DNA of 64,000 nt from Candidatus Poribacteria bacterium (GTDB taxonomy: Bacteria > Poribacteria > WGA-4E > WGA-3G), in NCBI GenBank assembly GCA_965198235.1, contig OZ240248.1, forward strand, positions 3,744,001-3,808,000, written 5' to 3'. Position numbers and translations under genes: made by a program. Below are positions 13,125 through 59,235 of this stretch, piece after piece. The notes under the pieces are model-generated. The model saw only the letters and a program-made list of their open reading frames with translations, did not search any database and had not been told where the DNA came from. The number at the start of each line of letters is the position of its first letter. Positions within the stretch are counted from its first letter, which is position 1.

Positions 13125-13681
13125 TTATCGCATAAGATCTGACTTAAGTTTTCCCCATGTTGTTGCCAGTTTATCTTGAGGTTTTACTGTTAATACGCCT
13201 TCGATGCCTCTGTTCATTAACTCCTGAATCTCCTGCTCGGAGTGTGCAATGTTGGAAATCCTGACCTCATCCATTCGTCCTTCTAAGAATGGACCTGCAC
13301 CCCGGCCGAGCCACAAGACCTCGTTATTCGGAACGATGTCTCCACCGATTTTGCCTTCACCGTCCAAAACGCCATTGATGTAAATCTTGGCTTCACCGGA
13401 CTTCGCATCGTAGGTACCAGCGATATGTGTCCATTTTTTAAGTGGCATGTCTGTTTTACCGGCAATAGCAGCAGCACCCCAAGCCCCGGATTACCCTCTC
13501 CCCATTTCGGACCCATAAGTTCGCCATCGTTGTTGTTTCCAGAGAGATCTTTAACGGTCTTCCCCGCCCCTGTTTCAAAAGTGTAAAGAAGGACAGTGTG
13601 TTCATCTTGCGCGAAGCTAATCAAGTTCTCAGCAGATATTAACAAGAGGACTAACGTTAGCCAGCGTATGCTGTTCTGCAT
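13125..13681 (-). pseudogene. LamG-domain exported protein, internally deleted and frameshifted
   Basis: One frame has the signal peptide plus LLYTFETGAGKTVKDLSGNNNDG; another has WTHIAGTYD...MDEVRIS...KLATTWGKLK; junction near 13485. Confidence 0.8.
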
Positions 13682-13765
13682 GATGGGATTTTTCCTTACT
13701 TAAGTGTGATTTGGCATTTTAGCATAGATCGATCCAACCCGCAATTCAAAAATGGACATACCGTC

Positions 13766-13803
13766 TTTTCTGAACAAATTTGATGCCGATTTGCCTAATC
13801 TAA
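13766..13803 (+). promoter_or_regulatory. Conserved bipartite motif TTTTCTGAACAAATT-N8-ATTTGCCTAATCTAA (copy 1), candidate alternative-sigma promoter
   Basis: Both 15-bp halves and the spacing are identical to 18550-18587. Confidence 0.55.
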
Positions 13804-13977
13804 CAAGGGGAATAGACCAAAATCTTCCAACTGTTAGAGAGAAAAATCTATGACGCGAAACAGGTTACCATTGTTCTTGCGTTATTTTTTTTCAGCGTTA
13901 TACTGAAGCCATGAAAAACACAAAACAGCGAGTTTCGCCCCACTTTTCTATAGAGACGCTCAAAATTGGGACTTGAC

Positions 13978-16029
13978 ATGCAGTATACATCGCAGCAAAA
14001 TGATTGGTTGGTTCAACCCTTTCGTCAGCCCGCTTCAGTAGAAAAAACGGACAATCAGCTTACTCTTGATAACGGGCTCATTCAGCGAACATTCGTCACC
14101 TCACCTAATTTCGCAACGGTTGATTATACCAATCAAATTACCGGTAGCAGTCTTCTTCGTGGCATCAAACCAGAGGCGGTACTTACGATTAACGGATGCC
14201 AATTTGAGGTAGGTGGCTTGAAAGGGCAACCCGACTATGCCTATCTTGATTTGGATTGGGTTTCGGACTTGACAAGTGACGGGAACGCATTTCAATTTCG
14301 CGAATATCGAGTTGGTGAAACTGAAACCCGCTATCCGTGGGTACGCAGGCGTTCCACAACATCATCCGTATATCCACCAGAGGGTGTGACACTGACCGTT
14401 GAATTCGCGTCCCCGCTATCCGTTGACGCCCTCCGGGTTTGTGGGCATTATGAACTCTACCGAGGCGTTCCGGTACTGTCCAAGTGGGTCACTGTTCGCA
14501 ATGAGAGCCAAAAACCGATTCAACTTGATGCCTTAAACTGTAAAATCCTTGCGGTCAATGAGCAGGAGAAGCATCGGCTACATGTCGAGAGCGATTATGC
14601 TTTCAGTGGAATGGAAGCGACACACTGGGGTCCAGATGTGAATTACAAGACACAGGTTGATTATCACTATCAGATGCCACTGTTGATGACAAGTTGTTAT
14701 CCACTCGGTCCGGGAATACTTCCTCAACCGGGAGAGACTTTCAAGGGTTTCCGCACCTTTGAAATTCTACATGATAGTGATGATCGTGAACGAAAAGGAC
14801 TTGCACGCCGCAAGATGTATCGCACAGTCGCGCCACAGGTCGCAGAGAATCCAATTCTAATGCACGTTCGGAGTGCCGAACCGGACGCGGTCCGTTTGGC
14901 GATCGATCAGTGCGCCGAAGTCGGATTTGAGATGGTGATTATGACCTTTGGAAGCGGATTTAACATTGAGAGCGAAAACCCGGAATACATCACCACAATG
15001 AAGGAATTGACCGATTATGCACATCGCAAAGGTATTCAGCTCGGTGGTTATACATTGATGTGTGCTTCTCGGAATGTGGGTGAAGATTTTAACTGTATTG
15101 ACCCGGACACTGGGCAACCCGGGAGTAGATTTGGGCAGAGTGCTTGTCTTGCGAGCAGATGGGCGGACGGCTATTTTCAGCGAGTGCTGAATTTCATGGA
15201 TGCAACCGGAATGGATGTCATAGAAACTGATGGTCCTTATCATGGTGACATCTGTGCGGCAACGACGCACGAACACCATAACGGCTTGGCGGATTCGCAG
15301 TTGCGCCAGTGGGAAGCGTGTGTTCTTTTTTACCACGAATGCCGAAAACGCGGTATCTATGTCAATTCGCCAGATAGGTATTACCTCAACGGTTCAAACA
15401 AATGTGGTATGGGCTATCGCGAAACGAATTTCAGCTTGCCCCGCGAGCGACAAATTCTAATTGCCCGGCAGAATATCTACGATGGAACTTTTGAAAAGAC
15501 ACCGAGTATGGGTTGGATGTTCGTCCCGTCGGTGGAGTACCACGGTGGCGGAGAAGCCGCAACGTTTGAACCGCTTTGCGAACACCTTGATGATTACGAA
15601 TCACATCTATCACAGAACTTCGGCAGTGGTGTGATTGCGTGCTATCGCGGTCCCCGACTTTTTGATACTGAACAGACGAAAGCAGTCGTTAAGAAATGGG
15701 TTGACTTCTACAAAAAGTATCGCCCAATATTGGATTCTGACCTGATTCACGTGCGCCGTCCAGATGGTCGTTCCATTGATTGTGTGCTTCACGCCAACTC
15801 GCAAATCAACCCCTGTGGACTCGCGATGCTCTATAATCCTACGCTGACGGTGCAACAGATCACTTTGAAACTATCGCTCTATTATACTGGGTTGTCGGAA
15901 ATTGCCAAGGTTCGTGAAGAAGAAGGAGCACCTAAACATTACAAGATCGACCGGGATTACAACGTTGAGATTCCGATTAAGATGGAAGCTAAGAGCGTAA
16001 GTTATCTCGTTATTGAACCTGAAGTTTGA
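13978..16029 (+). CDS. Alpha-galactosidase-like (GH36/GH27 clan) glycoside hydrolase
   Basis: Resembles bacterial proteins annotated as alpha-galactosidase (IDQCAEVGFEMVIMTFGSG, ETDGPYHGD); family assignment from recall only. Confidence 0.55.
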   Translation: MQYTSQQNDWLVQPFRQPASVEKTDNQLTLDNGLIQRTFVTSPNFATVDYTNQITGSSLLRGIKPEAVLTINGCQFEVGGLKGQPDYAYLDLDWVSDLTSDGNAFQFREYRVGETETRYPWVRRRSTTSSVYPPEGVTLTVEFASPLSVDALRVCGHYELYRGVPVLSKWVTVRNESQKPIQLDALNCKILAVNEQEKHRLHVESDYAFSGMEATHWGPDVNYKTQVDYHYQMPLLMTSCYPLGPGILPQPGETFKGFRTFEILHDSDDRERKGLARRKMYRTVAPQVAENPILMHVRSAEPDAVRLAIDQCAEVGFEMVIMTFGSGFNIESENPEYITTMKELTDYAHRKGIQLGGYTLMCASRNVGEDFNCIDPDTGQPGSRFGQSACLASRWADGYFQRVLNFMDATGMDVIETDGPYHGDICAATTHEHHNGLADSQLRQWEACVLFYHECRKRGIYVNSPDRYYLNGSNKCGMGYRETNFSLPRERQILIARQNIYDGTFEKTPSMGWMFVPSVEYHGGGEAATFEPLCEHLDDYESHLSQNFGSGVIACYRGPRLFDTEQTKAVVKKWVDFYKKYRPILDSDLIHVRRPDGRSIDCVLHANSQINPCGLAMLYNPTLTVQQITLKLSLYYTGLSEIAKVREEEGAPKHYKIDRDYNVEIPIKMEAKSVSYLVIEPEV

Positions 16030-16338
16030 ATCCACCCTATTTTTTCGAGTGTATTGCCCAAATAATATTTTTCTTAAAGGAAACCGCGAAATCCCCTTAT
16101 TAGGGGACTTTGAGAAGAGTTCTTGGTGAAGTTGATAGAAGGTTATACCATTTCTGAAAATAAATATCACATAGACGGCTTTTCTGAAGGGATACACGGC
16201 AGCACAAACTAAAAGTTTATGCTACATGCATATTGAAACGTATTCAATTAGAAATGGTATTACAACACCAGTGAAGCACAAAGTGCTATAATCCTGATTT
16301 TCCAATCAGGAGACTGCACTGGACAATTGGAGAAAAAA

Positions 16339-17106
16339 ATGAGAGTCATCCAATTAAAAAAAGCAATTTTGGTATACGTGATGCTGGTCTCCATCAGTTT
16401 CATGATTCCAGATCTAAGTTCTGCCAAACTCGATGCGGACGCACTTTTGGGAATATGGTTCTTTGATGAAGGTAAAGGCGGTGAGGCAATAGATTCTTCC
16501 GAGAATGGCAATGACGGAGAGATTGTTGATGCCCAATGGGTCGATGGTGAGTTCGGCAAAGCCCTAAAGTTTGAGGGAGGAGGTCATGTTGCTGTCGGTG
16601 ATTTTTCTGACTATGAGGATGAAGTATCAATCGTCGCTTTGATTAAAACGCCTGCAGCCCCTGCATGGTCTGACATCATCGTAGGTCCCTGCGGCGATGT
16701 TATCTTGACATTAAGGGACCACAAATTAAATTTCGCTGGACAGTGTGCGCAACCGATTCCGCATAATACGTGGTCTAAAAGTTTATTGAACGATGATAAG
16801 TGGCACCAGATTTCAGGTACGTATGACGGAAAAGAAGTGAAGGTCTATATTGATGGTGAAGAAGAAGCATCTAATGCCGCCGCAGGTCCATTTAAAGCGG
16901 GTCCAAAGTATATTGGCTCCAGAGACGACAAGCAGGAGGCTTTCACCGGTCTCATTGATGAGATTGCATTTTTCAATGTTGCACTCTCAGAAGCTGATGT
17001 GAAGGCGATTGCAGACAGTGGATTATCTATCGCACTCGGTTTTGCCGCGGTGTCTCCTCAAGCGAAACTGGCGACGGCTTGGGCGAGATTGAAAACGGAA
17101 CATTAA
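16339..17106 (+). CDS. Exported LamG (ConA-like jellyroll) protein
   Basis: Signal peptide, GIWFFDEG, GEFGKAL, WHQISGTYDG, IDEIAFFN, tail AVSPQAKLATAWARLK. Confidence 0.88.
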   Translation: MRVIQLKKAILVYVMLVSISFMIPDLSSAKLDADALLGIWFFDEGKGGEAIDSSENGNDGEIVDAQWVDGEFGKALKFEGGGHVAVGDFSDYEDEVSIVALIKTPAAPAWSDIIVGPCGDVILTLRDHKLNFAGQCAQPIPHNTWSKSLLNDDKWHQISGTYDGKEVKVYIDGEEEASNAAAGPFKAGPKYIGSRDDKQEAFTGLIDEIAFFNVALSEADVKAIADSGLSIALGFAAVSPQAKLATAWARLKTEH

Positions 17107-20727: not shown

Positions 20728-21576
20728 TTAAGATAAGGTTTGTCGTTGAAATTCCATAGGAGTCAAATACCCTAACGCCGAATGCGGGCGTTTCTGATGA
20801 TACACCTGTGTGATAAAATGTCCGATGCGATCTCTCGCCTCGGTGATGCTTTGATAGTCATTGATGTGAACTTCTTCCTCTTTGAGCGTGCGAATGAGTC
20901 TTTCCGCATATCCGTTCTCCCAAGGCCGTCCGCGCTGTGCGACGGAAATCTCAACGCCATGTTCTTGGAGCGTTGTGATGTAGGCACTTGAAAGATACTG
21001 CACGCCTTGATCGGAATGATGAATCTCAGGGACGCTGTGGCGTAATGCTTCTTTGAGCGGTTTGAGCGTCAGAGATTGGTTCAAGTGCTGACTGATCTGC
21101 CAAGCTTTGATGATTCGGGTGAAAACATCCATGAGCAGGCAGACATAGATGAAACGTCCATTGAGACGAACATAGGTAATATCAGACACCCAGACCTGAT
21201 CCTGACGAGAGACTTCAAGGGTTTCGAGCAGGTTGCTCCAAGGTTTTTCACCCTGAAGCGATTTTGTTGTTTGACACGCACGCTTGACAGTGACCAAAAG
21301 ATTCCTATTTTTCATCAATCGTGCGACGCGTCGGGTCCCAACGGTGTGTCCCATACGCAGTAGCAACTGCGTGATACGCCTATACCCGTATCTCGGATAC
21401 CGTCCCGCAAGCGTCTCTATTTCCGATCGTAGCAGATCTTCGGACGGATCCTCTTGGGGGTGATAATAGAAACTGCTGCGGTTGAAACCGAGTGTTTCAC
21501 AAATCTCTCGCACGGAATACTCCTTGTGCAATGCCGAAATGAGGCTTCGCTTTTCGGATAAGGTCATTTCAACCAA
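20728..21576 (-). CDS. IS3 transposase OrfB (DDE integrase core)
   Basis: YGYRRI, WVSDITY, HHSDQGVQY, ENGYAERLIRTLKEE, RPHSALGYLTP. Confidence 0.95.
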   Translation of the reverse strand: MVEMTLSEKRSLISALHKEYSVREICETLGFNRSSFYYHPQEDPSEDLLRSEIETLAGRYPRYGYRRITQLLLRMGHTVGTRRVARLMKNRNLLVTVKRACQTTKSLQGEKPWSNLLETLEVSRQDQVWVSDITYVRLNGRFIYVCLLMDVFTRIIKAWQISQHLNQSLTLKPLKEALRHSVPEIHHSDQGVQYLSSAYITTLQEHGVEISVAQRGRPWENGYAERLIRTLKEEEVHINDYQSITEARDRIGHFITQVYHQKRPHSALGYLTPMEFQRQTLS

Positions 21577-29293: not shown

Positions 29294-30346
29294 ATGGCAA
29301 TAGGATTGGGCGTTATTGGGATGAACCCCACGAATATGGGGTCAACTGCGACACTGTTAAAAGATGTACCGGACCTGAAATATGAACTCCGTGGTATCTG
29401 CGCGAAACGGGCAGATGTGCTTAAGAACTACGCCAGCCAAATCGGCGTGGATTTTTGGACGACAGATTACCGAGAATTGGTGCAGCGCGAAGATATTTCT
29501 GTCATCGCTATCTATTCCCCGGACCACCTGCACGCCGAACATTGCGTCGCGGCGATAGAAGCTGGGAAACATGTCATTTGCACAAAACCGATGGTGACGA
29601 CATTAGCCGATGCGCAACAGTTGGTAGATCTGGTGCGCGAACACAAGGTCAAATTCCTCGTGGGGCAGACGATGCGGTTTGACCTCCAGTTTTTGACGAT
29701 GAAACGGCTCTTTGACGATAGCGATTTAGGCGACATCATGGTGGCAGATGCCTATTATGTCCACGACATGCGCGAGGTTTACGATTTTACACCGTGGCGA
29801 CTCCATGAGCCACAAGATTTGATGTTCGGCGGTGTTGTACACCCGGTTGACATATTGCGCTGTCTTCTCGGTGATGTCGATGAGGTACATGCCTACGGCA
29901 CTAAAGGCACACTCACGCCGGAATACCCGATAAAGAACAATTTCTTTCTCAATCTGAAGTTTAAGAGTGGACAGATTGCGAGAGCGATGGGGCTTTACGA
30001 TATCGTCCATCCCCCGATGCCGATGATGCAGCTCTCTGTTTTCGGAAGTAAAGGGACGATAATTGGGGACTTTACGGACAACAAAGAAGGACACATCAAG
30101 TTGATGCTCGATAAAATGTCCACCAGAGAACCCTTTGAAGTGACCTGTCCTCCTGAAATAGACACAAGCGTTTACGGACATGGACAAACGGTTATCCGAT
30201 ATATGCGCCATTTTCAGCAGTGTCTTGAGGAAGATTTAGAACCATCGCCGAACGTGATTGATGGTGCAAAGTCTATTGCTGTCGGTGTGGCAGCATGGGA
30301 ATCTATTGAGACGGGACAACCTGTGAAAGTATTCAACGAGTTTTAA
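29294..30346 (+). CDS. Gfo/Idh/MocA oxidoreductase
   Basis: SPDHLHAE, AGKHVICTKPM, HPVD. Confidence 0.88.
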   Translation: MAIGLGVIGMNPTNMGSTATLLKDVPDLKYELRGICAKRADVLKNYASQIGVDFWTTDYRELVQREDISVIAIYSPDHLHAEHCVAAIEAGKHVICTKPMVTTLADAQQLVDLVREHKVKFLVGQTMRFDLQFLTMKRLFDDSDLGDIMVADAYYVHDMREVYDFTPWRLHEPQDLMFGGVVHPVDILRCLLGDVDEVHAYGTKGTLTPEYPIKNNFFLNLKFKSGQIARAMGLYDIVHPPMPMMQLSVFGSKGTIIGDFTDNKEGHIKLMLDKMSTREPFEVTCPPEIDTSVYGHGQTVIRYMRHFQQCLEEDLEPSPNVIDGAKSIAVGVAAWESIETGQPVKVFNEF

Positions 30347-30783: not shown

Positions 30784-30912
30784 ATTTCTCAACGTTTCTA
30801 ACAATTTTGGCACATAGTGCCTAAAACTGAATGGGTGTAACGCCCATACATTTACTTACCGCAGTGGGAAACTAAGCGCATTGTCTGTTCCCATTGCGGA
30901 TTGGAAAAAACA

Positions 30913-31572
30913 ATGCTTACACATGCAGCTGAGGATTACCTTAAGTCGATCTATAAATTGCAAGAGAAAGTCGGTAAAGTTTCGACCGGCATTTTGGCGG
31001 AATACCTCAATGTGAAGCCTGCGTCTGCCACTGGGATGATTAAAAAACTAAAGACGATGAAATTGGTGAGCCACGAGCGCTATCGGGGTGTTACGCTGAC
31101 GGATGCTGGAAAAGCAATCGCGCTCGAAATTATCCGGCACCATCGTTTGTTGGAACTTTATCTATTCAAGGCACTCGGTGTTCCGTGGGATGGTGTTCAC
31201 GAGGAAGCCGAGAAATTGGAGCATGTTATTTCGGAAGACGTGGAGGCACGGATGGACAAGTTTCTCGGCTACCCGACTGCCGATCCACACGGTTCCCCTA
31301 TACCCGATAAAAACGGCGTTGTAACAAAAACTGAGTCCGTTCCAATGACAGACTTGTGTAGTGGACAATCCTGCATTGTTGCTGAAGTCAGTGACACTGA
31401 TTCGGCGATGCTTCGGCATTTAGGAAGTTTCAATCTCTACCCGGGCACAGCGTTCCGAGTGATTGAGGTTGCTCCCTTTGAAGGTCCCTATACTATTGAC
31501 ATCGCTGGACAGCAGGTCGTTATTGGGCGTGAGGTTGCGAAACATATTTTTGTCGAGGATGTGGAGGAATAG
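30913..31572 (+). CDS. DtxR/MntR-family metal-dependent repressor with FeoA-like domain
   Basis: EDYLKSIY, RHHRLLELYL, HEEAEKLEH, DPHGSPIP. Confidence 0.93.
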   Translation: MLTHAAEDYLKSIYKLQEKVGKVSTGILAEYLNVKPASATGMIKKLKTMKLVSHERYRGVTLTDAGKAIALEIIRHHRLLELYLFKALGVPWDGVHEEAEKLEHVISEDVEARMDKFLGYPTADPHGSPIPDKNGVVTKTESVPMTDLCSGQSCIVAEVSDTDSAMLRHLGSFNLYPGTAFRVIEVAPFEGPYTIDIAGQQVVIGREVAKHIFVEDVEE

Positions 31573-31758
31573 TTATCGGCTATCGGCTGTCGGCTATCGG
31601 TTAAGAGCTGTTTGTAACAATCTTCCCCAACTTGGAATACTCTAGGAAGTGGTGAATTGTTACATGAAACCTCTTAACCTTAACCATCAACTCGCCTCCG
31701 TTATAAATGTTAAAGCACGAGTTGATGGCTAAAACTGACAACTGACAACCGACAACGA
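31573..31758. repeat. Heptamer arrays in inverted orientation enclosing a 53-bp palindrome
   Basis: (TATCGGC)n...(CTGACAA)n with TTAACCATCAACTCG...CGAGTTGATGGCTAA at 31680-31732. Confidence 0.7.
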
Positions 31759-31764
31759 TAAAAA

Positions 31765-32904: not shown

Positions 32905-32908
32905 AATT

Positions 32909-33871: not shown

Positions 33872-33873
33872 GC

Positions 33874-34614: not shown

Positions 34615-34647
34615 TTGACAGTTAACTGACAACTGATAACTAATAAA

Positions 34648-35586: not shown

Positions 35587-35592
35587 TAGGAA

Positions 35593-40081: not shown

Positions 40082-40915
40082 GTGAAAACCTTTATTTCAA
40101 GTTACACTACGATATTTTTTCTGTTAGTGACATGTGTCATTGCATTTGCTGGTGTTGTTGAGGATCCTGTGCTCTATCTCGATGCCTCTGACAACCCTGC
40201 TCATCCGAAGGCATGGGAGAACCTCGGTACCGAAGGCGGTGAATTGCTTGCCGCAGACAAACCAATGGAACTCGAAGAAGGCGAAATTAAAATTCCTACC
40301 CTCGGTATCGTCCAGCCGAACGTGAAGTATTACACCACCACGGATTCCCATCAGACCTTTGGCGGTCCACCCAAGAAAAATACCCCGCTATTTTTCGAGG
40401 ACTGGACCTTGGAGTTCCTCTGTAGGCGCAACGGTGACTTTTTTGTTGAAGAGCATCACTTCGTCGGTTTCCAGAATAGTCCAAGAGAGGGCAAGCAGGG
40501 GATTCGGCTTTGGTTCCGTCCATCGCCTCAGAATCTGGACATCTCTATCCATGCCAAGGGGACTAAGCAAGCCGTTCAACCCCTTAACATTACGCTTAAC
40601 CAAGGTGAATGGAACTGGATAGCAGTCGTCGGTACGAGCGGTAAGTCGATTGTGGCGTATCAAAACGGTAAAGAGGTTAGCAAGCAACCCGGTTTTGATT
40701 TCGATAAGAAAATACCGATAAACGACATCTCTATCGGTGCTAATTCTTGGGATGAACGCCGTCGGAATTTTAACGGTTCAATCGCTATCGTTCGAGTTTA
40801 TGATAAAGCACTGACCGCAGCGGAGATCAACGGGAATATTGATGGCGCGTTTGCTGTTGATCCGGCGGACAAACTCCCGACGACATGGGCACGCGTAAAG
40901 CGCGGCTATGAATAA
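40082..40915 (+). CDS. Exported LamG-like protein
   Basis: GGAGGAG RBS plus GTG at 40082; signal peptide, LYLDAS, FNGSIAIVRVYDKALT, tail AVDPADKLPTTWARVK. Confidence 0.83.
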   Translation: MKTFISSYTTIFFLLVTCVIAFAGVVEDPVLYLDASDNPAHPKAWENLGTEGGELLAADKPMELEEGEIKIPTLGIVQPNVKYYTTTDSHQTFGGPPKKNTPLFFEDWTLEFLCRRNGDFFVEEHHFVGFQNSPREGKQGIRLWFRPSPQNLDISIHAKGTKQAVQPLNITLNQGEWNWIAVVGTSGKSIVAYQNGKEVSKQPGFDFDKKIPINDISIGANSWDERRRNFNGSIAIVRVYDKALTAAEINGNIDGAFAVDPADKLPTTWARVKRGYE

Positions 40916-47294: not shown

Positions 47295-47316
47295 GTCCCA
47301 TAGGTAAAAAACAATT

Positions 47317-49480: not shown

Positions 49481-50488
49481 TTAAAAAGGTAACGAAACGG
49501 GTTGCCCGCTCTCAACAGATTGATATGCAGCCAATGCGATTTCGACTGCGGCACGACCGTCTAAGCCTGTGATAGGTGGCGATGTGTCGTTACGGATTGC
49601 GTCTACGAAGACGCGAATTTCTTCTTCAACCGGTGACGGCACCTTGATATCTGCCACTTTAATCTGTCGTCCTTCACCCTCAAAAGGTTTAATCTGGATG
49701 GCTGCATCGCCTCCCCAGATCTGTGGAAAATAGATGGAACCGCCTTTGCAATCGACGCGTCCGCCATAACCACCGACAGCGGAGACATGACTGGAGTGGA
49801 GCAATCCGACCGCTCCGTTTGCAAACTGCAAGGAAGCAAGCACAACATCTGGATAGTCGCTTTTATCTGGTCCGTATTGTCCGCCGATGGCATAGACAGA
49901 GGCTACATCTCCACAGGTCCAACGCATAAAGTCTATTTCATGGGCGTTGATTTCCATGAGACTCCCGCCAGACTTCGCACGCTCCAGTCGCCATGGTGTG
50001 TGACTGTACCCACTGCGCCATGGGCCCCCGATCCGATGCACCATCATACAGGCGGGTGCGCCGAGTTCCTCGCTCTGCACAATTTCACGAACGACGGAAT
50101 GCGTCCCGTGGTAACGACATACCAAGCCGATCGTAAGTTTGACACCGTTTGCGTCTGCGGCGGCAATCATCGCGTCGCAGGCCTCCAACGTAGGTGCCAT
50201 CGGTTTTTCGGAAAATACATGTTTGCCTGCATTCGCGGCATCGACTGCCATCTGTGAGTGCATAAATGGTGGTGACGCGATTAGGACTGCACGAATCCGA
50301 TCATCGGCGAGTAATTCGTGGTAATTTAGTGTATAGGACACACTAAGGTCTGTGGCAAGTTTTTCAGCCAGTGCTTCTTGCACATCACTGACAGAGATAA
50401 CTTCTATTCCCTCAACAGCATGGGCACTGGTGGCAAGGCTTCTGCCCATGCCACCGCATCCGATAACGCCAACTCCAATCGTTTCCAT
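49481..50488 (-). CDS. Gfo/Idh/MocA oxidoreductase
   Basis: GVIGCGGMG, GKHVFSEKPM, GGSLMEINAHEID. Confidence 0.9.
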   Translation of the reverse strand: METIGVGVIGCGGMGRSLATSAHAVEGIEVISVSDVQEALAEKLATDLSVSYTLNYHELLADDRIRAVLIASPPFMHSQMAVDAANAGKHVFSEKPMAPTLEACDAMIAAADANGVKLTIGLVCRYHGTHSVVREIVQSEELGAPACMMVHRIGGPWRSGYSHTPWRLERAKSGGSLMEINAHEIDFMRWTCGDVASVYAIGGQYGPDKSDYPDVVLASLQFANGAVGLLHSSHVSAVGGYGGRVDCKGGSIYFPQIWGGDAAIQIKPFEGEGRQIKVADIKVPSPVEEEIRVFVDAIRNDTSPPITGLDGRAAVEIALAAYQSVESGQPVSLPF

Positions 50489-50543
50489 TTTTAATTTATG
50501 GCCTCCTGGGCTGCGCTCCACTTCGTTTCGCGCAGGTTTCCGA

Positions 50544-51443
50544 TTATCTCCGTCTTGCTTTGATATGACCCCAAGTAACGCTCAAATGGCTCGCTGAAGG
50601 ACTGACATCAAGCCCTGTAGCTTCCATGTTGTTCTGAACCTCTGCTGCACTCAGAACGCGATCGTAAATTCGGAATTCGTCAATATACCCCTGAATCGTA
50701 TCGCAATCGCATCCATCTGACCGATCCCCAATGCCGAGGAGAAGCCCTCCCTTTGAAATCTTACCGCCCTTCATGGCGTACTTTTTTTCCTGTTTTCCAT
50801 TCACATAATAGTGAACCGTTTTACCATCATAGGTGCCAGTGAGGTGCAGCCACTCTTCAAGTGGGATGTCCTCCAGTACATTGTCCTGTGCAGCCACCGT
50901 TGATTGGCCACCGGCTCTGACGAAGAAGCCGTGTTGGTTGTCGTCATCGTCATAGTAAAGGCTCGCGACTGCGCTGTTCGTTGGCATATCGTCGAGTGAG
51001 ATAATCCGATTCCAACTGTCATCCAAGGCGTTGACGTAGACCCAACATTCCAAGGAGATCTCCTCCCAATCCCGATCGATTTTCGGTGGGTTTGAATCTT
51101 CAACGAGGAATCGGTCAACACTCCCATCAAAAAGGATGCACTCGCCGACTTTGCAATCGGAGGCGGGTGCGAGTTCAGGGTCCCCCTTAACAGCGGCAGC
51201 GAGTCCTGACAGGAGATCTACCGCCTCGGTTTTGATCTTTACCGTGTCTTTGTCGAAGGACCAATAGGCGATTAAGCCATCTTCAACCGCTCCGACAATT
51301 GCATCGGTAGGTTGGGCATTCCATCCGAGGAACGCGATAAGGAGAAGGGCGAATGCGCGTTTGGCATTCGCAAAGACTGTAAAGAACCGTGAATTTTCCA
51401 CAAAATGTCTGCTCTGAAAACGGGCACCGTTTTTTAGACGCAT
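50544..51443 (-). CDS. Exported LamG protein
   Basis: LIAYWSFD, WLHLTGTYDG, IDEFRIYDRVLS, tail DVSPSASHLSVTWGHIK. Confidence 0.85.
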   Translation of the reverse strand: MRLKNGARFQSRHFVENSRFFTVFANAKRAFALLLIAFLGWNAQPTDAIVGAVEDGLIAYWSFDKDTVKIKTEAVDLLSGLAAAVKGDPELAPASDCKVGECILFDGSVDRFLVEDSNPPKIDRDWEEISLECWVYVNALDDSWNRIISLDDMPTNSAVASLYYDDDDNQHGFFVRAGGQSTVAAQDNVLEDIPLEEWLHLTGTYDGKTVHYYVNGKQEKKYAMKGGKISKGGLLLGIGDRSDGCDCDTIQGYIDEFRIYDRVLSAAEVQNNMEATGLDVSPSASHLSVTWGHIKARRR

Positions 51444-51571
51444 GATTCATTTCCTCCTTCTACCTAATACAGGGGTATGAGTGAGCCAAAGGATGGATAC
51501 TTCGGTTCACAATGTAGGTTCGTTAGGACGTGAGGTATAGATGTCTCGTGTTACACCGAAAAGGAACGGGT

Positions 51572-52966
51572 TTAAAACATGTCGCGCATGGCACGTTCAC
51601 GCCGATCCGCGATTTGACGTTCACGCTCCTCATCAGACTGCCGACCATGTGGTACAGCAATGATGGGTCGGTATTCGGCGACTTCGCTCTTGCGCTTGAA
51701 CACTCGGAAGAAGTCGAAACGGGTTAAGGTTGGCGGAATGTTCCCGGGACACAGTGAATGTACCCCAACATGCACCGAATTTCCCATGCCAACGTTGGTT
51801 TGCCCACAGCTTTTCCATTGAATGCCGTCGTCACTGGCGAAAGCGGAGAATTGGTTACCTCTACGTTCCATGCGTAAGAAGAGTTCTCGGACATTTCTAA
51901 GTCCACTGCTACGTCCGCGTAGATTAAATGAGCGTCCGACGTGGCGTTCAAATCGGACATCGCCTCTGAATGCGTGTGGTCCCGAGGTTTTTTCAAGTCT
52001 GAGGAATCGATTGGGATTTTTCCATACCAATAAGCCACCGTGTTCTTTCAGTTGTGGCGAGATTCGCATGCGAGTTTCAATAGCGAAGTCTCCAGCGACT
52101 TCCATGAGGAGACGGGGTGCACTCATATCGCCGCTTCTGCCGTCTGGACCGTGCCAAAGGTCTTGCCCGGGTTCAGTCCGCATTTCCAGATAGCCTTGGC
52201 GTTCTGCCCAGGAACCGCCGCCTTTCGGGTCGTCCCACCGCCATTCCGGACGCATACGGTTTCCGATGAACTCATCTTCAAATACCATCTCTGTGAACTC
52301 ACCAGAAGATGCCCATCCTTCAATCTTCACAGCGGAGATAGAATCTCCAAAGTTTTGGGGGAGTAAATGGAGGTTCGGCAACTCCTTTTTGTATTCCGAG
52401 GGTTCCATGCGTATGGGTAGAGGTGCCCCCTCAAAGTCAGGGTGTTCGTAAAAGACCACCTCCGCGCCATGTCGCGGGAAATCCGGTCCTTTGAAGATGC
52501 GGATTGACGAAATTCGGTCTTCAAACCAAGTACCACCTTGCGCATCCCGTAGGTTGGCGATATCGCGCAGAATGGTGATTTTTCTACCTCGGAATTCGAC
52601 GTGTTCGTAGCAATCCACAATCAGCGGGATAGTCCCCCACTCCGGTCCAACCACCTCCAGCGTGGAACCGAAGTTGATTGATGAGATTCTGTCGGCGAAG
52701 TTGTAAGCGGTGTCGTGCAGGTTCGGATAAAATCCGGGCCCGAGTGCTAACTTTTGACCGCGGAAATGGCGATGCTGGTAAAGGATGACTTTGTAATTCG
52801 GGTTCGACGAGAAGTTCGGACCCTTATAGACACGAACAGAAGAGATATTGTCTTGAAACCCGATGTCTCGTGTAAAGGGAACAGGCTCCACAACATATCC
52901 CATTCTGCCCCGGAAGTTTGTATGTTGGAACACCTCAACAACGAGGCGCGGTATGACGACTGGCAT
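51572..52966 (-). CDS. Beta/gamma-crystallin repeat protein fused to a ConA-like (DUF1349-type) domain
   Basis: Four motifs [FY]-x-H-x-x-F-x-G...D-x-I-S-[SA]; C-terminal DLW...APRLL...GDFAIET...S-x-DG-x-x-W. Confidence 0.82.
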   Translation of the reverse strand: MPVVIPRLVVEVFQHTNFRGRMGYVVEPVPFTRDIGFQDNISSVRVYKGPNFSSNPNYKVILYQHRHFRGQKLALGPGFYPNLHDTAYNFADRISSINFGSTLEVVGPEWGTIPLIVDCYEHVEFRGRKITILRDIANLRDAQGGTWFEDRISSIRIFKGPDFPRHGAEVVFYEHPDFEGAPLPIRMEPSEYKKELPNLHLLPQNFGDSISAVKIEGWASSGEFTEMVFEDEFIGNRMRPEWRWDDPKGGGSWAERQGYLEMRTEPGQDLWHGPDGRSGDMSAPRLLMEVAGDFAIETRMRISPQLKEHGGLLVWKNPNRFLRLEKTSGPHAFRGDVRFERHVGRSFNLRGRSSGLRNVRELFLRMERRGNQFSAFASDDGIQWKSCGQTNVGMGNSVHVGVHSLCPGNIPPTLTRFDFFRVFKRKSEVAEYRPIIAVPHGRQSDEERERQIADRRERAMRDMF

Positions 52967-52985
52967 TATTTTCTCCTTTTTTAAT

Positions 52986-53130
52986 GGTTATCAGTTTTAA
53001 CCATCAACTCGCACATTGATAAAAGTGTTAAGGCACGAGTTGATGGTTAAGGTTTTCAGTTTTCAGTTAAGAGGTTTCATTTAGAGGTTGCCTCTTGTGA
53101 CTGACGACTGTTAACTGTTAACTGTTAACT
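52986..53130. repeat. Heptamer arrays with nested 54-bp palindrome
   Basis: TTAACCATCAACTCG...CGAGTTGATGGTTAA at 52997-53050; (TTTTCAG)n and (CTGTTAA)n. Confidence 0.7.
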
Positions 53131-54221
53131 ATTTTGAGAGCTGCCTCATAGATTTGAGCATATCCACTCCGATCGGATGTGAATACAACGTGCTTGCCAT
53201 CCGGGCTGAAGGACGGGTGTGGATGTGTATGTTGTGGTGCGTAAACCTGAATCGGACCCGCAGCATACGGGAACGGTCCATTCCAATGCTCACCAATAGA
53301 TGAGGCGTTGGGATAGCATAACGTCTGCGGTTCGCCGATACCGTCACGTGGATCAAAAATTTGGATACCAATATCCGGGAAATTAGTATCTGCCACCATA
53401 AGTGTTCCAGCAGAATCGCTAATGGCATGCCATGCGTTGACCGTTGTCACTTGTCGGTCTATTCCGGTATCGACGTTGACACACCTCACACCCCGGGGCC
53501 AATCGACAAAAGCGAGTTCACGCGTTCCTGGAATCCACGTTTCATGTGTGATCCATTCGTTCTTTTCAACGTTACGGGCATAGAGGCGACGGTTTCCACT
53601 TCCGTCGCGATGGATTACCCACAGTCGATCGGTAAGGGGACCCGCATAGTAGAGCAGATTGGGATCATCGGGACAGAATTGAAGGTGTCCGATACTATCT
53701 CTCCGTAAGATGATATCGTGCCCGCCGGTGTCTGTGTCTATAATAGCGAGTGCGGATTCTTTACCGATGTTGAATCTCACAGCCCACCATCGATTATCGT
53801 GACTCAAGGCGGTAGTGCCCATAGCGGCGGCGACCATACCTTCGTCCTGCATCGCCGTTGCGGCGAAATTGACGAGTTCGCGCTCCTCAAGCGTCTCCAA
53901 ATCTACTTTCCATCCGCTTGTACCTGCTGTGAAGAAAACCGCTTTTCCATCGCGCGAGGGATGCACCGACCATTCCGAGAGGTCAGGTCTGTCTGTTAAT
54001 TGGCGAAGTTCACCCGTCGTCCGTTCTTCTGCGAATATCTGGGGTGTCCCTGTTCGGTATGAGACAAATATCAGCCGCTGCATCGCATCGTCATACGCAG
54101 GTATGATGAAGAATGGATGGTGGTGCAACGCGGACGCAGTCGTCACTTGTCGGATCTGTATTCCGGTGCATCGATCATAAAAGGTCCGTGATTCAGGGGG
54201 ATGAACTGTACCTTTCGCCAT
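53118..54221 (-). CDS. Oligogalacturonate lyase (PL22)-family beta-propeller
   Basis: GHLQFCP, THETW, HPHPSFSPDGKHVVFTSDRSG. Confidence 0.82.
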   Translation of the reverse strand: MAKGTVHPPESRTFYDRCTGIQIRQVTTASALHHHPFFIIPAYDDAMQRLIFVSYRTGTPQIFAEERTTGELRQLTDRPDLSEWSVHPSRDGKAVFFTAGTSGWKVDLETLEERELVNFAATAMQDEGMVAAAMGTTALSHDNRWWAVRFNIGKESALAIIDTDTGGHDIILRRDSIGHLQFCPDDPNLLYYAGPLTDRLWVIHRDGSGNRRLYARNVEKNEWITHETWIPGTRELAFVDWPRGVRCVNVDTGIDRQVTTVNAWHAISDSAGTLMVADTNFPDIGIQIFDPRDGIGEPQTLCYPNASSIGEHWNGPFPYAAGPIQVYAPQHTHPHPSFSPDGKHVVFTSDRSGYAQIYEAALKIVNS

Positions 54222-54312
54222 TCTTTTAATTTTCCTTGCGGTTAAACGACGTGGTCTGTCTTTGAGCGTCCTATTCTTAAATCCTGCTTCGCAGTGAGAA
54301 CCATTTCATTTC

Positions 54313-55311
54313 TTATTCCTCGAACGCGGCATCAAAGGCAACAGCAGAAGGTTCAAAGTCATAGCCCTTGACGGCACCGCACGATTCGCGTGCACCGTGT
54401 TCTCTGTCCATTCCACTGTCTTCCCACTCAATGGAGAGTGGACCGTCGTATTCCATGGTGTTGAGGGCACGAATAACTTCCTCAAAGTTAATGCTACCAC
54501 GACCGATGGAACGGAAGTCCCAATTTCTCCGGACATCTCCGAAGTTCAGATGTCCGCCGAATACACCCGATAAACGGGGTGTGTCTGCCCACCAGACATC
54601 TTTCATGTGGACGTGATAAATCCGATCACTCAGTCGTTCGAGGAATGCTACATAGTCAACGCCTTGATAGCCGAGATGGCTTGGGTCGTAGTTAAATCCG
54701 AACGCTTCTCTGCCATTGACCGCCTCGATGGCACGTTCTGCAGTAACGATGTCAAAGGCAATTTCGGTGGGATGAACTTCGAGTCCAAATTTGACACCGA
54801 CTTCATCGAAGACATCAAAGATCGGGTTCCAGCGATCGGCGAAATCTTCAAAACCGGCATCAATTTGTCCTGGGTCGTTCGGAGGGAAAGAGTACAGAAG
54901 ATGCCATATTGAGCTACCGGTGAAACCGTTGACAACACTTACGCCGAGTTTCGCGGCGGCACGTGCTGTGTTTTTCATCTCTTCGGCAGCGCGTTCCTGA
55001 ACGCCTGCGGGATCTCCATCGCCCCAGATCGCCTCTGACAAGATGCCTTGATGTCGGCTGTCAATATTATCGCAGACTGCCTGTCCAACGAGGTGATTGC
55101 TGATTGCCCAAACTTTGAGTCCGTATTTCGCGAGTAGATCGTGTCTACCTTGGCAGTAGCTATCGTCTGCGAGTGCCTTGTCAACTTCAAAATGGTCGCC
55201 CCAACAGGCGAGTTCTAAGCCATCATAGCCCCAACCACTCGCTTTTTCTGCTAATTCCTCTAATGTTAAGTCTGCCCATTGGCCTGTAAAGAGTGTTACA
55301 GGTCTTGCCAT
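54313..55311 (-). CDS. Sugar phosphate isomerase/epimerase (xylose isomerase-like TIM barrel)
   Basis: [30 protein letters not shown]. Confidence 0.9.
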
Positions 55312-55450
55312 AGTATGTCTCCTTTTATTGGTTATCGGAAACCATCGGCTATCGGCTATCAGTGAAAAGATGTCTAATTAATCAAACCCTCTTACCGACT
55401 GCTGATAGTAAGGGAAGCGAACGCCCTGACTGCCGATTGCCAATATAAAA

Positions 55451-56623
55451 TTACGCGGGAGGCGAATACCTCACATCGATCCACGCGCGTTGTTTACCAC
55501 TATCCACAGCAGCATTAATAAAATGCACACCACGAGCACCATCTTGAACGGTTGGAAAATCTGTGTCGAATTCAGTTGGAGCTTCGCCCGCGATTTTCGC
55601 TGTTATTGTCCGTGCGGCGTTTACATAAATATTTGCGAATGCCTCAATGAACGCTTCTGGGTGTCCGAAAGGTATCCGCGAGTTGTGCTGGACGACCTCC
55701 GACAAATAATCGTTTCCACGTTTGTAAACCTGTTCGGGACCATCGGGGAAGCGAACATAGAGATAGTTCGGATTCTCCTGTTGCCATTCCAGCGATGCAT
55801 CAGTCCCATAGACACGGATACGCAGATTGTTCTCTTCGCCTACCGAGATTTGTGACGCATAAAGTACTCCACGGACTCCGTTTTCATAATGCACGAGTAG
55901 GTTTCCATCGTCTTCTAACAAGCGTCCCTCTACAAAAGTCGTCATATCCGCACAGATTTCTTCGATGTCGAGTCCTGTGATATAGTGTGCCAAGTTCTCT
56001 GCGTGGGAACCGATGTCCCCGATACATGAGGAAGCCCCGGCTTGATTCGGATCGGTACGCCAGACGGCTTGTTTCGCGCCTTCGTTCTCTAAAAATGTGG
56101 CGAGCCAGCCTTGCGGGTATTCGACGACGATTTTACGGAGTGTTCCGAGTTTCCCCTCTTTCACGAGTTCACGTGCCTGCTTCACCATCGGATAGCCTGT
56201 GTAGTTGTGTGTGAGCGCGAAAACGACATCGTGTTCTTTGACGAGTTGACATAGTGTCTCAGCATCAGCGACCGTTGTTGTCATCGGCTTATCACAGACG
56301 ACGTGAAATCCTGCTTCAATAAAGGTTTTGGCGATATCGAAATGGACGTGGTTCGGTGTCACGATTGAGACGAAATCAATGCGTTCGCCATCGGGAAGTT
56401 GGCTCTCTTTCTCTGCCATTTCTTGATAAGACCCGTAGACCCGGTTTGCGTCAAGGAAGAGTTCAGCACCCTGTTGTCGGGATTTTTCGGGTGATGATGA
56501 GAACGCGCCAGCAACGAGTTCTATTTCTCCGTCAAGTGCTGCGGCTTTCCGATGGACGGCACCGATGAACGCATCCGGTCCACCACCTACCATGCCGTAA
56601 CGGGCTTTCCTGTTCAGTGGCAT
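55451..56623 (-). CDS. Gfo/Idh/MocA oxidoreductase
   Basis: [28 protein letters not shown]. Confidence 0.9.
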
Positions 56624-57261
56624 CTTGCGTGTTTTCTCCTTTGCTTTGTAATCTGGGCTTGCAAGTTTCGCCCTATGAGGATATGTTGATTCCAAGATAC
56701 ATTATCTCATATTTTATGATTTTTTTCAAGTTTTTTGCAGCGTCATTCAGTTCTCCTGTAGAAAGGATCTCCGCGTCCGGCCCTCCTGATCACAATTTCG
56801 TTTAACTTTTCCTGGAAATCTGTTATCATTCTCACAATCGTTTACGAGGGTTCGGGTAGTAGTGCTTTGTCACGTCAACATTGAAGTATAGACATCGCGA
56901 GCATGGGGGAAATCCGAAGAAGCACCCAAGCAATACGCAGAAACACCCTATCAAAAACACCCCAAGCAAAAACACTCGCTCCTACAGGTAGAGGTTAGGG
57001 GCTTGTGCCACCTACCCCATCATTTCAAGCTTGACAAAGCAGTAGGTTGGGTTGAACGGACTGAACTAAAACGTTAGCCTCGCCAAAAAACCGGGGGTTC
57101 GTGCTATACACCCACCATCACAGAGATACCGAGTGAAACCCAACGTTCTACCAAAAACGTTGAATAAATAGAAAACCCCAAAATCCGCGCAATCCGCGAT
57201 TCAGACGATGAACAACAGACAACCGACAACCCATCACAACACACAGGAGACAAAAGACCAG

Positions 57262-59235
57262 ATGAACCCTTTCAAAAAGAAGCATCGGGATTACAAATCC
57301 CTCCTACAGGGCGCGCAGATTCTCGTGACGCTTGCGGTGGCGATAGGCATGTTGTTCAGCATCACCCCCGAAGTAGATGGATTTATGGCGTTTGACCATC
57401 AGTCTCAACTTCCAGAGCATATGAGGAGAAAATTCAACAACCTCATCCGTCGGGTGCATAAGGATCAGTGGGTGATTGGCTATGCATACGCCGATCCTGA
57501 ATGGGGTGAACCTGCCGGGGTCTGCCCACCGGAGGCAAGACACAACGGCGCGGCGATTGAGGCAGCCATCACCGATGCCTTGCGCGCCTGGTTGCAGCCT
57601 GTCAAGGACTTGAACACCGGCAAACCCGTCGTCGATGACTTTCGCTATGTCCCGAACTTCGATGTGAGTAATGTGCCTGAGCTTAAGTTGTATGACCTGC
57701 GAATCGTTTTCTTCTGCGACGTTGACAAATCACGCGCATTGACAGGGTCAAGAGAGGCACATCCGCCACAGATCCACATGCACCGAGGCACAGATGTGGA
57801 CGAACGTTTCGAGTTTACCCTCCTGCACGAGATCGGTCATTCCTTCGGTTTACTGGATACCTATCGGAGACAGGAACTTACGCTCGAAGAACTCAGAGTC
57901 AGCAGGGGTGGCTTGCTTGCAACCATCGGACACCAACCCTCTTCGGTGATGTCCGGGCTGTACATCTCTCGCCCCGGTCCCAGACGCATCGCTCAGGACG
58001 ACGCAAACGGTATCGTTTGGCTCTATAAGTTCTATCACGAAAATCTGCCACTTGAAGATTGTATCTTCCCCGACTACGAGTTGGAGACATCTCCCGATGG
58101 GTGTCGTCCGAAGTCTCCACTCATCTTTGAAATCAAACATGGCCCTGATGAGCGCTTTGCGATCCAAGTTATTGAGCAGGATAGAAACACGGATGTCAAT
58201 GCCAAGGACGAAACGGGGTCAACGGCACTCCACCATGCGTTAGAAAAAGGGTATTCACGGCTGCTGGAGAAACTCTTGGTGCATTCAGACCTTGATGTGA
58301 ATGCGAGGAATGCCGAGGGAAGCACGGCACTGTTCTGGGCGGCAAAACGCGGGTCTTACGGTGTGACAGAGCGACTTCTGAAGCACAGGAAGATTGACGT
58401 GAACATCAGAAACACTGCTGGCACGACACCCCTGAAGGCAGCCGCAGCAGAAGAAAACGATCGCATCGTAGAGTTGCTTTTAGAACAGGAGCCCCGTGAA
58501 TCGGATTGGACAGGGGTTGATAAAACCGCTCCCGCACATCAGCGCTCGGTGTTTTACCTACTCCACGATCCGCGTCCATTGATTTTCCATGCGGGGTATC
58601 TGGGAACAGTCCTCGGGGGAGATGCGTTGTTCATTACACAGAAACGGGAAGACGCTTCCATAGAAAGTTATCTCAGCAAAGGAGACTTCACACTCGTGAG
58701 TCATTCGGGTGTCGTTGCGGAGAGTATCAAGATTCGGGAAATCGCATCGTTTCCCGGTGCGGACGGTGAAACAGGCAGCGTGCTTCTGGCAATCAGAGAC
58801 GTAGATCTCTCAGCGTATGAACCGTTACTGGTCTCAACAGACCCCATTCTCACAGAAACGGATGTCGAACTGCTGACGTATAAGTTTGGGTCGGGTATTG
58901 CGTTGAAAGGGAATGACAAAGATAACGCATTGAATCTTCCACTTCAGGTGCGTGCGTGTGTCTCGGTGCCGCATGTCGGGTTGGGTGCCAAAGGTTTATG
59001 GCAGCATACGTGTGGGCCTCCCAACAGCGTTGCGTCGGGGGCATTGCTATTCGATGAGAAGGACGGGATACTCATCGGTTTCTATACCGAACAGGAGGTC
59101 GAGGAGATTCTTGGAGACGGGCTTCCGCTTGCCAACAGTGTGTCTGAGGCGTTGATACGGCTTGTCGACGCCAAGCCGGTAAGTCCGAAAAACAGATTGA
59201 CGACGACATGGGCGGAAATCAAACAGGAGGACTGA
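57262..59235 (+). CDS. Exported metzincin-like zinc metalloprotease with ankyrin repeats and conserved C-terminal tail
   Basis: HEIGHSFGLLD, SSVMS Met-turn, three ankyrin repeats (GSTALH, GSTALF, GTTPL), tail PVSPKNRLTTTWAEIK. Confidence 0.82.
   Translation: MNPFKKKHRDYKSLLQGAQILVTLAVAIGMLFSITPEVDGFMAFDHQSQLPEHMRRKFNNLIRRVHKDQWVIGYAYADPEWGEPAGVCPPEARHNGAAIEAAITDALRAWLQPVKDLNTGKPVVDDFRYVPNFDVSNVPELKLYDLRIVFFCDVDKSRALTGSREAHPPQIHMHRGTDVDERFEFTLLHEIGHSFGLLDTYRRQELTLEELRVSRGGLLATIGHQPSSVMSGLYISRPGPRRIAQDDANGIVWLYKFYHENLPLEDCIFPDYELETSPDGCRPKSPLIFEIKHGPDERFAIQVIEQDRNTDVNAKDETGSTALHHALEKGYSRLLEKLLVHSDLDVNARNAEGSTALFWAAKRGSYGVTERLLKHRKIDVNIRNTAGTTPLKAAAAEENDRIVELLLEQEPRESDWTGVDKTAPAHQRSVFYLLHDPRPLIFHAGYLGTVLGGDALFITQKREDASIESYLSKGDFTLVSHSGVVAESIKIREIASFPGADGETGSVLLAIRDVDLSAYEPLLVSTDPILTETDVELLTYKFGSGIALKGNDKDNALNLPLQVRACVSVPHVGLGAKGLWQHTCGPPNSVASGALLFDEKDGILIGFYTEQEVEEILGDGLPLANSVSEALIRLVDAKPVSPKNRLTTTWAEIKQED

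Follow-up and report, generated by a model that had tools for sequence, protein, structure and literature searches.

A short C-terminal peptide shared by exported proteins of Poribacteria, a candidate sorting or docking tag

We analyzed a 64-kb stretch of Candidatus Poribacteria DNA (the window, meaning the whole stretch at its full length) and found that five of its genes end in the code for one short peptide, here called the tail. This module of about 20 residues is strictly C-terminal and, as far as sampled, restricted to Poribacteria, an uncultivated and mostly sponge-associated phylum that is dominant in many sponge microbiomes. It is portable over about a dozen unrelated protein architectures, with Laminin_G_3 (LamG) the largest, and judging from their N-termini the proteins that carry it are Sec-exported and mostly non-lipoprotein. 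We put at about an even chance the reading that the tail is a post-Sec sorting or docking tag that has no membrane helix and is read by one shared partner. C-terminal sorting tags have repeatedly led to new envelope machines, namely the sortases, the exosortases, and the type IX system.

In the six-frame translation of the window, the core pattern [TSVA][TSVA]W[GAS].[LIVM]K matched exactly 5 times, and all five matches were located 3-5 residues upstream of a stop codon. When the window was resampled 200 times with a first-order Markov model, a resample contained 0.26 matches on average, of which 0.115 fell near a stop, and never more than 2. We then ran a 19-column hidden Markov model (HMM), built solely from the tails of other genomes, on the 1239 six-frame open reading frames (ORFs) of the window. 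The preliminary description of this DNA had suggested such a profile scan, and it recovered four of the five tails at about 26-32 bits. The fifth tail (50547-50606) has a one-residue insertion and scored 5.3 bits, no better than the best unrelated window ORF (5.8 bits), so its identification rests on the core pattern and on its orthologues. The tails and the genes that carry them are as follows.

13125..13681 (-): remnant of a LamG carrier, by comparison with intact 260-aa orthologues such as P0128
13128..13187 (-): tail of this broken LamG gene, V-K-P-Q-D-K-L-A-T-T-W-G-K-L-K plus 5 residues; HMM 30.3 bits
16339..17106 (+): carrier with Sec signal peptide, Laminin_G_3, and tail (ORF listing, Pfam, AlphaFold 2 (AF2) model with LamG core at a predicted local distance difference test score (pLDDT) >90)
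17050..17103 (+): its tail, V-S-P-Q-A-K-L-A-T-A-W-A-R-L-K plus 3 residues, stop 17104-17106; HMM 26.9 bits, kept in orthologues
40082..40915 (+): carrier with signal peptide, Laminin_G_3, and tail (ORF listing, Pfam, hydrophobic-segment test)
40856..40912 (+): its tail, V-D-P-A-D-K-L-P-T-T-W-A-R-V-K plus 4 residues; core pattern, HMM 31.1 bits
50544..51443 (-): carrier with signal peptide, Laminin_G_3, and tail (ORF listing, Pfam, hydrophobic-segment test)
50547..50606 (-): its variant tail, V-S-P-S-A-S-H-L-S-V-T-W-G-H-I-K plus 4 residues, with the one-residue insertion; core pattern, kept in 291/299-aa orthologues, HMM 5.3 bits
57262..59235 (+): non-LamG carrier with N-terminal hydrophobic signal or anchor, HExxH metalloprotease-like region, ankyrin repeats, C-terminal region, and tail (ORF listing, Pfam)
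59179..59232 (+): its tail, V-S-P-K-N-R-L-T-T-T-W-A-E-I-K plus 3 residues; core pattern, HMM 26.2 bits

The preliminary description had placed five tails here on five ORFs with signal-like N-termini. All five tails are present where it put them (13125 and 50544 mark where genes on the minus strand stop, and 16339, 40082, and 57262 mark the probable start codons of genes on the plus strand), and four of the five genes encode intact exported carriers. The gene at 13125-13681 is broken. Relative to its intact orthologues, it has lost about 226 nt internally and changed frame, and as a result its signal-peptide ORF (13283-13681) and the ORF holding the C-terminal half of LamG with the tail (13125-13448) are in different frames. 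It is a pseudogene remnant in which a perfect tail is still encoded. For the carrier at 16339..17106, the longest ORF begins at TTG 16327 (it is called the 16327 carrier below) and ATG 16339 is the likelier start; all named close homologues of this carrier (73-93% identity) are Candidatus Poribacteria, and its orthologues keep the tail while the residues past the final Lys vary. For the carrier at 40082..40915, the longest ORF begins at 39992, and GTG 40082, just ahead of the hydrophobic segment, is the likelier start.

Pfam assigned Laminin_G_3 to four of the carriers, as the preliminary description had read them, and the fifth is the unrelated protease-ankyrin protein that it had reported. 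The longest ORF of this fifth carrier begins at 57208, and its orthologue P0186 begins at a Met matching 57262. Its ankyrin repeats span about residues 323-430 of a 675-aa ORF, its HExxH/Peptidase_M10 signal in Pfam is weak, and its C-terminal region of about 240 aa has no domain assignment; an AF2 model from a 3-sequence alignment had a mean pLDDT of 31, too low to be of use. The tail is absent from all 42 other annotated window proteins, which agrees with the earlier statement that it occurs on no cytoplasmic enzyme here. These tail-less proteins include PEPCK, oxidoreductases, a sulfatase, ABC transporters, a ZnuA-type binding protein, a BamA-like Omp85 protein, and exported TPR proteins. 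With the ZnuA, Omp85, and exported TPR proteins lacking it, the tail marks a subset of the exported proteins.

To place the tail outside the window, we back-translated the pattern V-x-P-x-x-[K/R]-L-x-T-x-W-[G/A]-x-hydrophobic-K into degenerate DNA and scanned 185,579 species genomes, a collection in which a rough estimate gives a few tens of matches by chance. The scan found at least 132 loci. Among the loci listed, 121 were titled Poribacteria, 10 'uncultured bacterium', and 1 Comamonadaceae, so that the lineage specificity proposed earlier holds as far as sampled (121/132 listed loci). The named Poribacteria loci among the matches listed range in GC content from 0.33 to 0.67, which indicates that the tail persists over deep divergence inside the phylum. 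The listed loci hold 162 pattern matches, 137 of them unique; one runs off its locus, leaving 136 that can be placed. In 134 of these 136 listed matches the motif ends 1-12 residues before the stop, most commonly at a distance of 3. The two non-terminal matches among those listed are one in locus L106, 32 residues from the stop, and the Comamonadaceae one, whose motif is poor, lies at a distance of 41 residues, and probably matched by chance.

The same 19-column HMM was run on 5999 six-frame ORFs of loci L001-L080 (E <= 0.01) and gave 97 unique hits, all of them 1-12 residues from a stop and none internal. Equally frequent internal occurrence was an observation that the preliminary description had listed as speaking against a sorting signal, and neither search bore it out. 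The consensus is [G/E]-hydrophobic-[L/F/T]-[A/P/S]-V-[E/D/S]-P-x-[G/D/N]-K-L-[A/T/S]-T-T-W-[G/A]-x-[L/I]-K. Between it and the stop lie 1-7 residues, in rare cases up to 12, most of them polar or basic (R 17%, K 9%, n=472 residues). Positions left free by the pattern are also conserved: E or D after V, G, D, or N before K, A, T, or S after L, and T before W. Weaker variants lacking the Pro exist and are also terminal, and the invariance of V and P in these sets is therefore partly imposed by the search pattern.

Profile searches of protein collections gave a similar placement. A 135-tail profile run against 1.84 billion representative proteins found 998 clusters at E <= 0.001; in the best 150 of the 998, the match ended at most 11 residues from the protein end in 144, and the other 6 were short metagenomic fragments. 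A search with a 65-tail profile scored 7998 candidates, 396 of them hits at E <= 10, and the 3 hits listed with an organism name were all Poribacteria, too few to define a taxonomic range. With a five-sequence, 42-residue profile searched against a 5.8-billion protein set (longer proteins only), the best 120 hits were orthologues of the window carriers by length and Pfam domains.

To characterize the carriers, we collected the 78 complete ORFs of at least 150 aa in fully flanked loci; shorter ORFs were dropped, and the carriers in L081-L132 were left out since their ORFs are cut by locus ends. The Pfam assignments of these 78 carriers are as follows.

Laminin_G_3: 41/78
No Pfam hit: 16/78
PD40 beta-propeller: 4/78
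3keto-disac_hyd (DUF1080): 4/78
NPCBM: 4/78
CBM_4_9: 2/78
CBM9_1: 2/78
DUF3108_like: 2/78
DUF3179: 1/78
BNR: 1/78
RhaB_D2/PA14: 1/78

Further carrier types are the ankyrin/HExxH protein of the window and FG-GAP proteins from the 65-tail profile search. Together with the unrelated Pfam families of the list, they uphold the portability claimed in the preliminary description. Most carriers are small single-domain glycan-binding beta-sandwiches (LamG, CBM4_9, CBM9, NPCBM, DUF1080), while others are beta-propellers and one is the metalloprotease-ankyrin protein. Tail-bearing ORFs of 32-139 aa occur among the full-length carriers in L019, L062, L072, L078 (1980-2087), L080, and L008, and tandem arrays of carrier genes are frequent (L028-L030, L038/L039, L078/L079). 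Taken with the pseudogene of the window, these short ORFs and arrays suggest a rapid gain and decay of the carrier repertoire. An IS605 OrfB/TnpB-type gene at L074:643-1752 (-) directly adjoins duplicated carrier genes. The tail thus marks a very large and fast-turning-over set of glycan-binding and other exported proteins in Poribacteria.

Since 41 of the 78 carriers are LamG proteins, it could be asked whether the tail is an independent feature at all, or is the last strand of LamG or a translated repeated DNA element at the 3' ends of genes. We give this almost no weight, as the data already contradict it. The other 37 carriers are not LamG proteins and include propellers and unrelated beta-sandwiches. 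In each LamG carrier of the window, the Pfam model (PF13385) stops 25-30 residues short of the protein end, which places the tail outside the domain. The AF2 model of the 16327 carrier (68-sequence alignment) is a jelly roll with mean pLDDT 91-98 in ten-residue blocks from 41 to 230; residues 242-254 fall below 50, and tail residues 244-257 are drawn as an undocked helix. In this model a flexible linker joins the tail to the end of the folded domain and leaves it outside the fold, and the possibility raised in the preliminary description, that the tail is a structural strand of LamG, fails on all three counts. At the DNA level, third codon positions of the motif carry 0.01-0.4 bit and free first or second positions up to 1.3 bit (n=132 tails), and the 60 nt past the motif show no conservation across the 132 tails, with nothing kept downstream of the stop. 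We therefore conclude that selection acts on the peptide and not on a repeated DNA element.

A PDB fold search with the LamG model returned generic ConA-like jelly rolls only (template-modelling score 0.53-0.63, 13-20% identity), and an ESM Atlas search with residues 236-259 of the 16327 carrier gave a best score of 0.81, within the noise range. A PDB sequence search with the tail profile matched 7pjj_A residues 653-665 (internal, in a GH3 beta-glucosidase; E 0.13) and 8dj2_A residues 7-16 (at the N-terminus of an adhesin; E 0.17), both probably by chance. The GH3 segment of 7pjj_A shares P-x-G-[K/R]-L-x-T-T-W-G with the tail.

The tail is tied to N-terminal export signals. Using a crude test (best 10-residue Kyte-Doolittle mean within the first 70 residues of at least 2.2, in place of a dedicated signal-peptide predictor), we found an N-terminal hydrophobic segment in 73 of the 78 carriers, compared with 11 of the 42 other window proteins (Fisher p = 1.7e-14). 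This co-occurrence had been proposed as a check on the sorting-signal idea and came out in its favor. When the reach was widened to 90 residues, 77 of the 78 passed 2.2, and the remaining one, in L017, scored 1.91. In all 78 carriers the N-terminus looks like a signal peptide, with n-, h-, and c-regions and an AxA-like cleavage site; five of the 78 are lipobox-like and one is Tat-like. Among full-length library hits, 40 of 43 passed the hydrophobic-segment test. Of the three that failed, two start around the cleavage site of the signal peptide and seem to be truncated at the N-terminus; in the third, no signal peptide can be recognised.

Given carriers with these features, the reading named at the outset, a post-Sec tag with a shared partner, would work as follows. 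The carrier would be exported by Sec and its signal peptide removed. A single partner common to all carriers, perhaps a receptor, a scaffold, or a processing enzyme, would then recognise the unstructured tail in an extended, strand-like form and hold every cargo at, or bring it to, the same place in the envelope, for which the cell surface is the most plausible candidate. The reader of the tail would have to work differently from the sortases, the exosortases, and the type IX system, because the tail has neither a membrane helix nor a folded domain. The periodicity of the tail is compatible with such a step. In the 12 residues after the Pro (134 tails), the hydrophobic moment at 160 degrees was 0.48 against 0.26 in shuffled sequences, and at 100 degrees it was 0.25 against 0.26. 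The tail is therefore not an amphipathic helix and its periodicity is strand-like, which fits an extended strand offered to a partner.

A different possibility is that no protein partner is involved and that the tail would attach by itself to lipopolysaccharide, peptidoglycan, or a membrane leaflet, its Trp lying at the interface between flanking Lys residues, much as a C-terminal amphipathic helix tethers Sec-exported PBP5 of E. coli to the inner membrane on its outer face. There is a precedent, in that an excerpt of the PBP5 literature (PMC2909392) describes an exported protein whose last 18 residues anchor it although they form no membrane-spanning helix. The Lys, Trp, and Lys of the tail are conserved, many of the residues past the motif are Arg or Lys, and AF2 draws residues 244-257 of the 16327 carrier as a helix. 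However, that helix is predicted at pLDDT <50, the helical moment equals that of shuffled sequences, and the tail has a mean hydrophobicity of -0.03 with three hydrophobic residues only. In addition, the near-invariant V-x-P and T-T over hundreds of paralogous families exceed what lipid binding should need, although this invariance is partly imposed by the pattern. We consider such a direct anchor rather unlikely.

The strand-like periodicity would also suit an assembly tag, in which the tail serves as a donor strand or oligomerisation element that joins carriers to one another or to the incomplete beta-sandwich of a scaffold, giving multivalent lectin or enzyme complexes by a logic that might resemble cohesin-dockerin pairing or pilus strand exchange. 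The carriers are mostly glycan-binding modules of low-affinity type that would gain from multivalency, their genes often lie in the tandem arrays mentioned above, and one carrier adjoins an exported protein with cohesin and dockerin-like modules (L005). Against this, the cohesin neighbor family occurs in only 2 neighboring ORFs (L005 and L046), the carrier folds are unrelated and so offer no common acceptor site on the cargo, and no scaffold family was found among the carrier neighbors. A complex prediction with three copies of the mature 16327 carrier returned a score of 0.00 ('no answer'), which weighs neither way on self-assembly. On balance we hold an assembly tag of this kind to be unlikely. 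The cohesin protein of L005 (2103-3749 (-), 548 aa) has a cohesin domain, acidic repeats, and a C-terminal dockerin-like duplicated segment, and its gene is convergent to that of a tail carrier. A relative is present in L046, the family having been seen at these two loci only; the L005 protein could be a scaffold lead.

The tail is disordered, terminal, and conserved, as the motifs recognised by proteases or adaptors are, and it might accordingly be pictured as a turnover or regulatory tag, that is, a degron or quality-control handle recognised by an envelope protease or chaperone. The C-terminal degrons known so far, however, are recognised at the very end of the chain, whereas here 1-12 variable residues follow the motif, and the restriction to lectin-like modules would be hard to explain. 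We regard a turnover tag as improbable.

Several points weigh against a sorting or docking tag with a shared partner. We inspected 196 unique non-carrier ORFs beside carriers, and no dedicated sorting gene recurs among them. The largest similarity cluster consists of 6 TPR proteins (about 3%), which is no enrichment, as 2 of the 42 other annotated window proteins are also TPR proteins; other recurring neighbor families include PhyH, methyltransferases, and GFO/IDH/MocA. To our knowledge, no short linear C-terminal signal lacking both a membrane helix and a folded domain is known to sort Sec-exported bacterial proteins, and the proposed mechanism is without direct precedent. The invariance of V, P, T, and W is partly produced by the search pattern, and the matches listed for the at least 132 loci do not show that the tail is absent from other phyla. 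Finally, recognition by a partner, destination, function, and any cleavage of the tail, and with them the location and processing steps, are inferred.

The preliminary description had named the Omp85 protein of the window as a candidate translocator. This protein, at 2588-4525 (-), is BamA-like: it scores 217.8 bits with TIGR03303, below the cutoff of 297, aligns from model position 150 onward, and has three POTRA hits. It is of a housekeeping type, either a short BamA or a paralogue, and nothing ties it to the tail. The sorting-signal reading of that description has been retained where it treats the tail as terminal, portable, Sec-linked, and lineage-restricted as sampled, and its Omp85 link has been dropped.

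A bolder proposal, which we put forward tentatively and with more doubt than confidence, is that Poribacteria have a sorting pathway specific to them. In it, an undiscovered envelope machine would read a linear C-terminal signal some 20 residues long and without a membrane helix (core K-L-x-T-T-W-G-x-[L/I]-K) and bring to the cell surface roughly a hundred or more lectin-like Sec-exported proteins in each genome, as a functional analogue of the C-terminal domain (CTD) of the type IX secretion system (T9SS) at a fifth of its size, and so build a glycan-binding coat that meets the sponge matrix. The tail profile can be used to list the carrier set in any genome, which would allow phylogenetic profiling for the machinery and a search for processed C-termini in metaproteomes. 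If the tail is a true docking peptide, it could possibly serve as a compact display or assembly tag.

The window holds several other features. Near the carriers at 50544 and 57262, two regions (49481-56695 (-) and 29294-30346 (+)) encode GFO/IDH/MocA oxidoreductases and xylose-isomerase-like TIM barrels, together with an oligogalacturonate-lyase-like propeller and a beta/gamma-crystallin-DUF1349 protein. A GFO/IDH/MocA oxidoreductase gene is located 23 nt downstream of the carrier at 50544..51443 on the same strand. These oxidoreductase surroundings and the DUF1080 (3-keto-disaccharide hydrolase) carriers found elsewhere may point to a glycoside-oxidation context. The remaining features are as follows.

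8562-9317 (+): nucleotidyltransferase and HEPN fused in one 251-aa protein, a pairing that is usually a two-gene toxin-antitoxin-like module
13966-16029 (+): 687-aa ORF between two carrier genes, with no Pfam/NCBIfam hit and no signal peptide
20728-21576 (-): IS3-type integrase-core (rve) transposase between PPDK_N-domain and DUF5916 proteins
30901-36702 (+): metal-homeostasis operon with a DtxR-family repressor with FeoA domain, VIT1, a ZnuA-type lipoprotein, an ABC ATPase, and two ABC-3 permeases

We then compared the tail with known families and systems. No NCBIfam or Pfam model matched it, whether whole carriers or 10 isolated tails (E <= 10) were searched; the lone sub-threshold exception, DUF6309 on a single tail (E 0.078, 12.8 bits against a cutoff of 25), was taken as noise. 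We found no paper on the tail: the longer motif strings did not occur in the literature searched, the 20 texts listed for 'TTWG' were all unrelated, and searches centred on Poribacteria listed nothing on it either. The preliminary description had called the tail a candidate undescribed signal, and these searches leave that standing. Three kinds of signal could be set aside from the carriers' N-termini. Encapsulin or microcompartment targeting peptides were rejected because the carriers have Sec signals, and prepilin-type leaders because the carrier N-termini read as ordinary signal peptides. Type I secretion signals occupy the last 50 or so residues of proteins that have no N-terminal Sec signal and often have RTX repeats; the carriers have Sec-type signal peptides and no RTX Pfam hits.

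The sortase-type signals are tripartite and C-terminal, and include LPXTG/sortase, PEP-CTERM/exosortase, GlyGly-CTERM/rhombosortase, and PGF-CTERM/archaeosortase. Like them, the tail is C-terminal on proteins with Sec signals, portable over unrelated families, lineage-restricted, and present in many paralogues, and it has a short signature (V-[E/D]-P recalls PEP), a less polar stretch, and basic residues. Unlike them, it has no membrane-spanning helix, as already pointed out in the preliminary description, and its L-x-T-T-W-G-x-L stretch is 8 residues long; no NCBIfam sorting domain matched it at E <= 10, and no sortase-like gene recurs beside the carriers. For LPXTG specifically, the tail has no such motif and no membrane-spanning stretch after its own motif, only 1-12 polar residues and the stop. 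For PEP-CTERM (TIGR02595), V-[E/D]-P and basic ends are present, but there is no helix and no NCBIfam hit on the 10 tails, and no exosortase gene was seen among the 31 neighbor families of the carriers.

The CTD of the T9SS is a folded beta-sandwich of roughly 70-100 residues. Like the tail, it (TIGR04183/Por_Secre_tail) is a C-terminal signal without a membrane helix on Sec-exported proteins, and it leads to outer-membrane passage and surface attachment. In contrast, the tail is about 20 residues long, far shorter as the preliminary description had noted, is disordered in AF2 (pLDDT <50), and has no TIGR04183 or Pfam hit (PF18962 included), so that we do not class it as a T9SS CTD. An excerpt of Kamke et al. 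2014 (PMC3909097) reports TIGR04183-like C-terminal domains in Poribacteria without type IX secretion genes; that domain differs from the tail and is far larger.

Dockerins are calcium-binding modules of about 70 residues in cellulosomal enzymes. They resemble the tail as portable C-terminal docking modules on secreted carbohydrate-active proteins, but no carrier has a Dockerin Pfam hit. In outer-membrane proteins, the BAM complex recognises a beta-signal, a strand-like motif at the C-terminus that includes an aromatic residue. The tail shares the terminal position, the strand-like character, and the aromatic residue, and the window has a BamA-like Omp85. However, the carriers are soluble beta-sandwiches or propellers (LamG, CBM, or propeller) rather than barrels, the motif is not at the extreme terminus, and only 27 of 134 tails end in F or Y.

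A further case is E. coli PBP5, a Sec-exported protein whose last ~18 residues, according to an excerpt of the work cited (PMC2909392), hold it at the membrane surface without a membrane-spanning helix. The tail differs from the amphipathic anchor of PBP5 and PBP6 in that it is not helix-amphipathic (moment at 100 degrees 0.25 against 0.26 shuffled, 134 tails; AF2 helix of low confidence) and in that it is conserved across unrelated families, not only among orthologues. The tail has the properties that would define a new class of tag: it is conserved, terminal, portable, restricted to exported proteins, and under selection at the level of the peptide.

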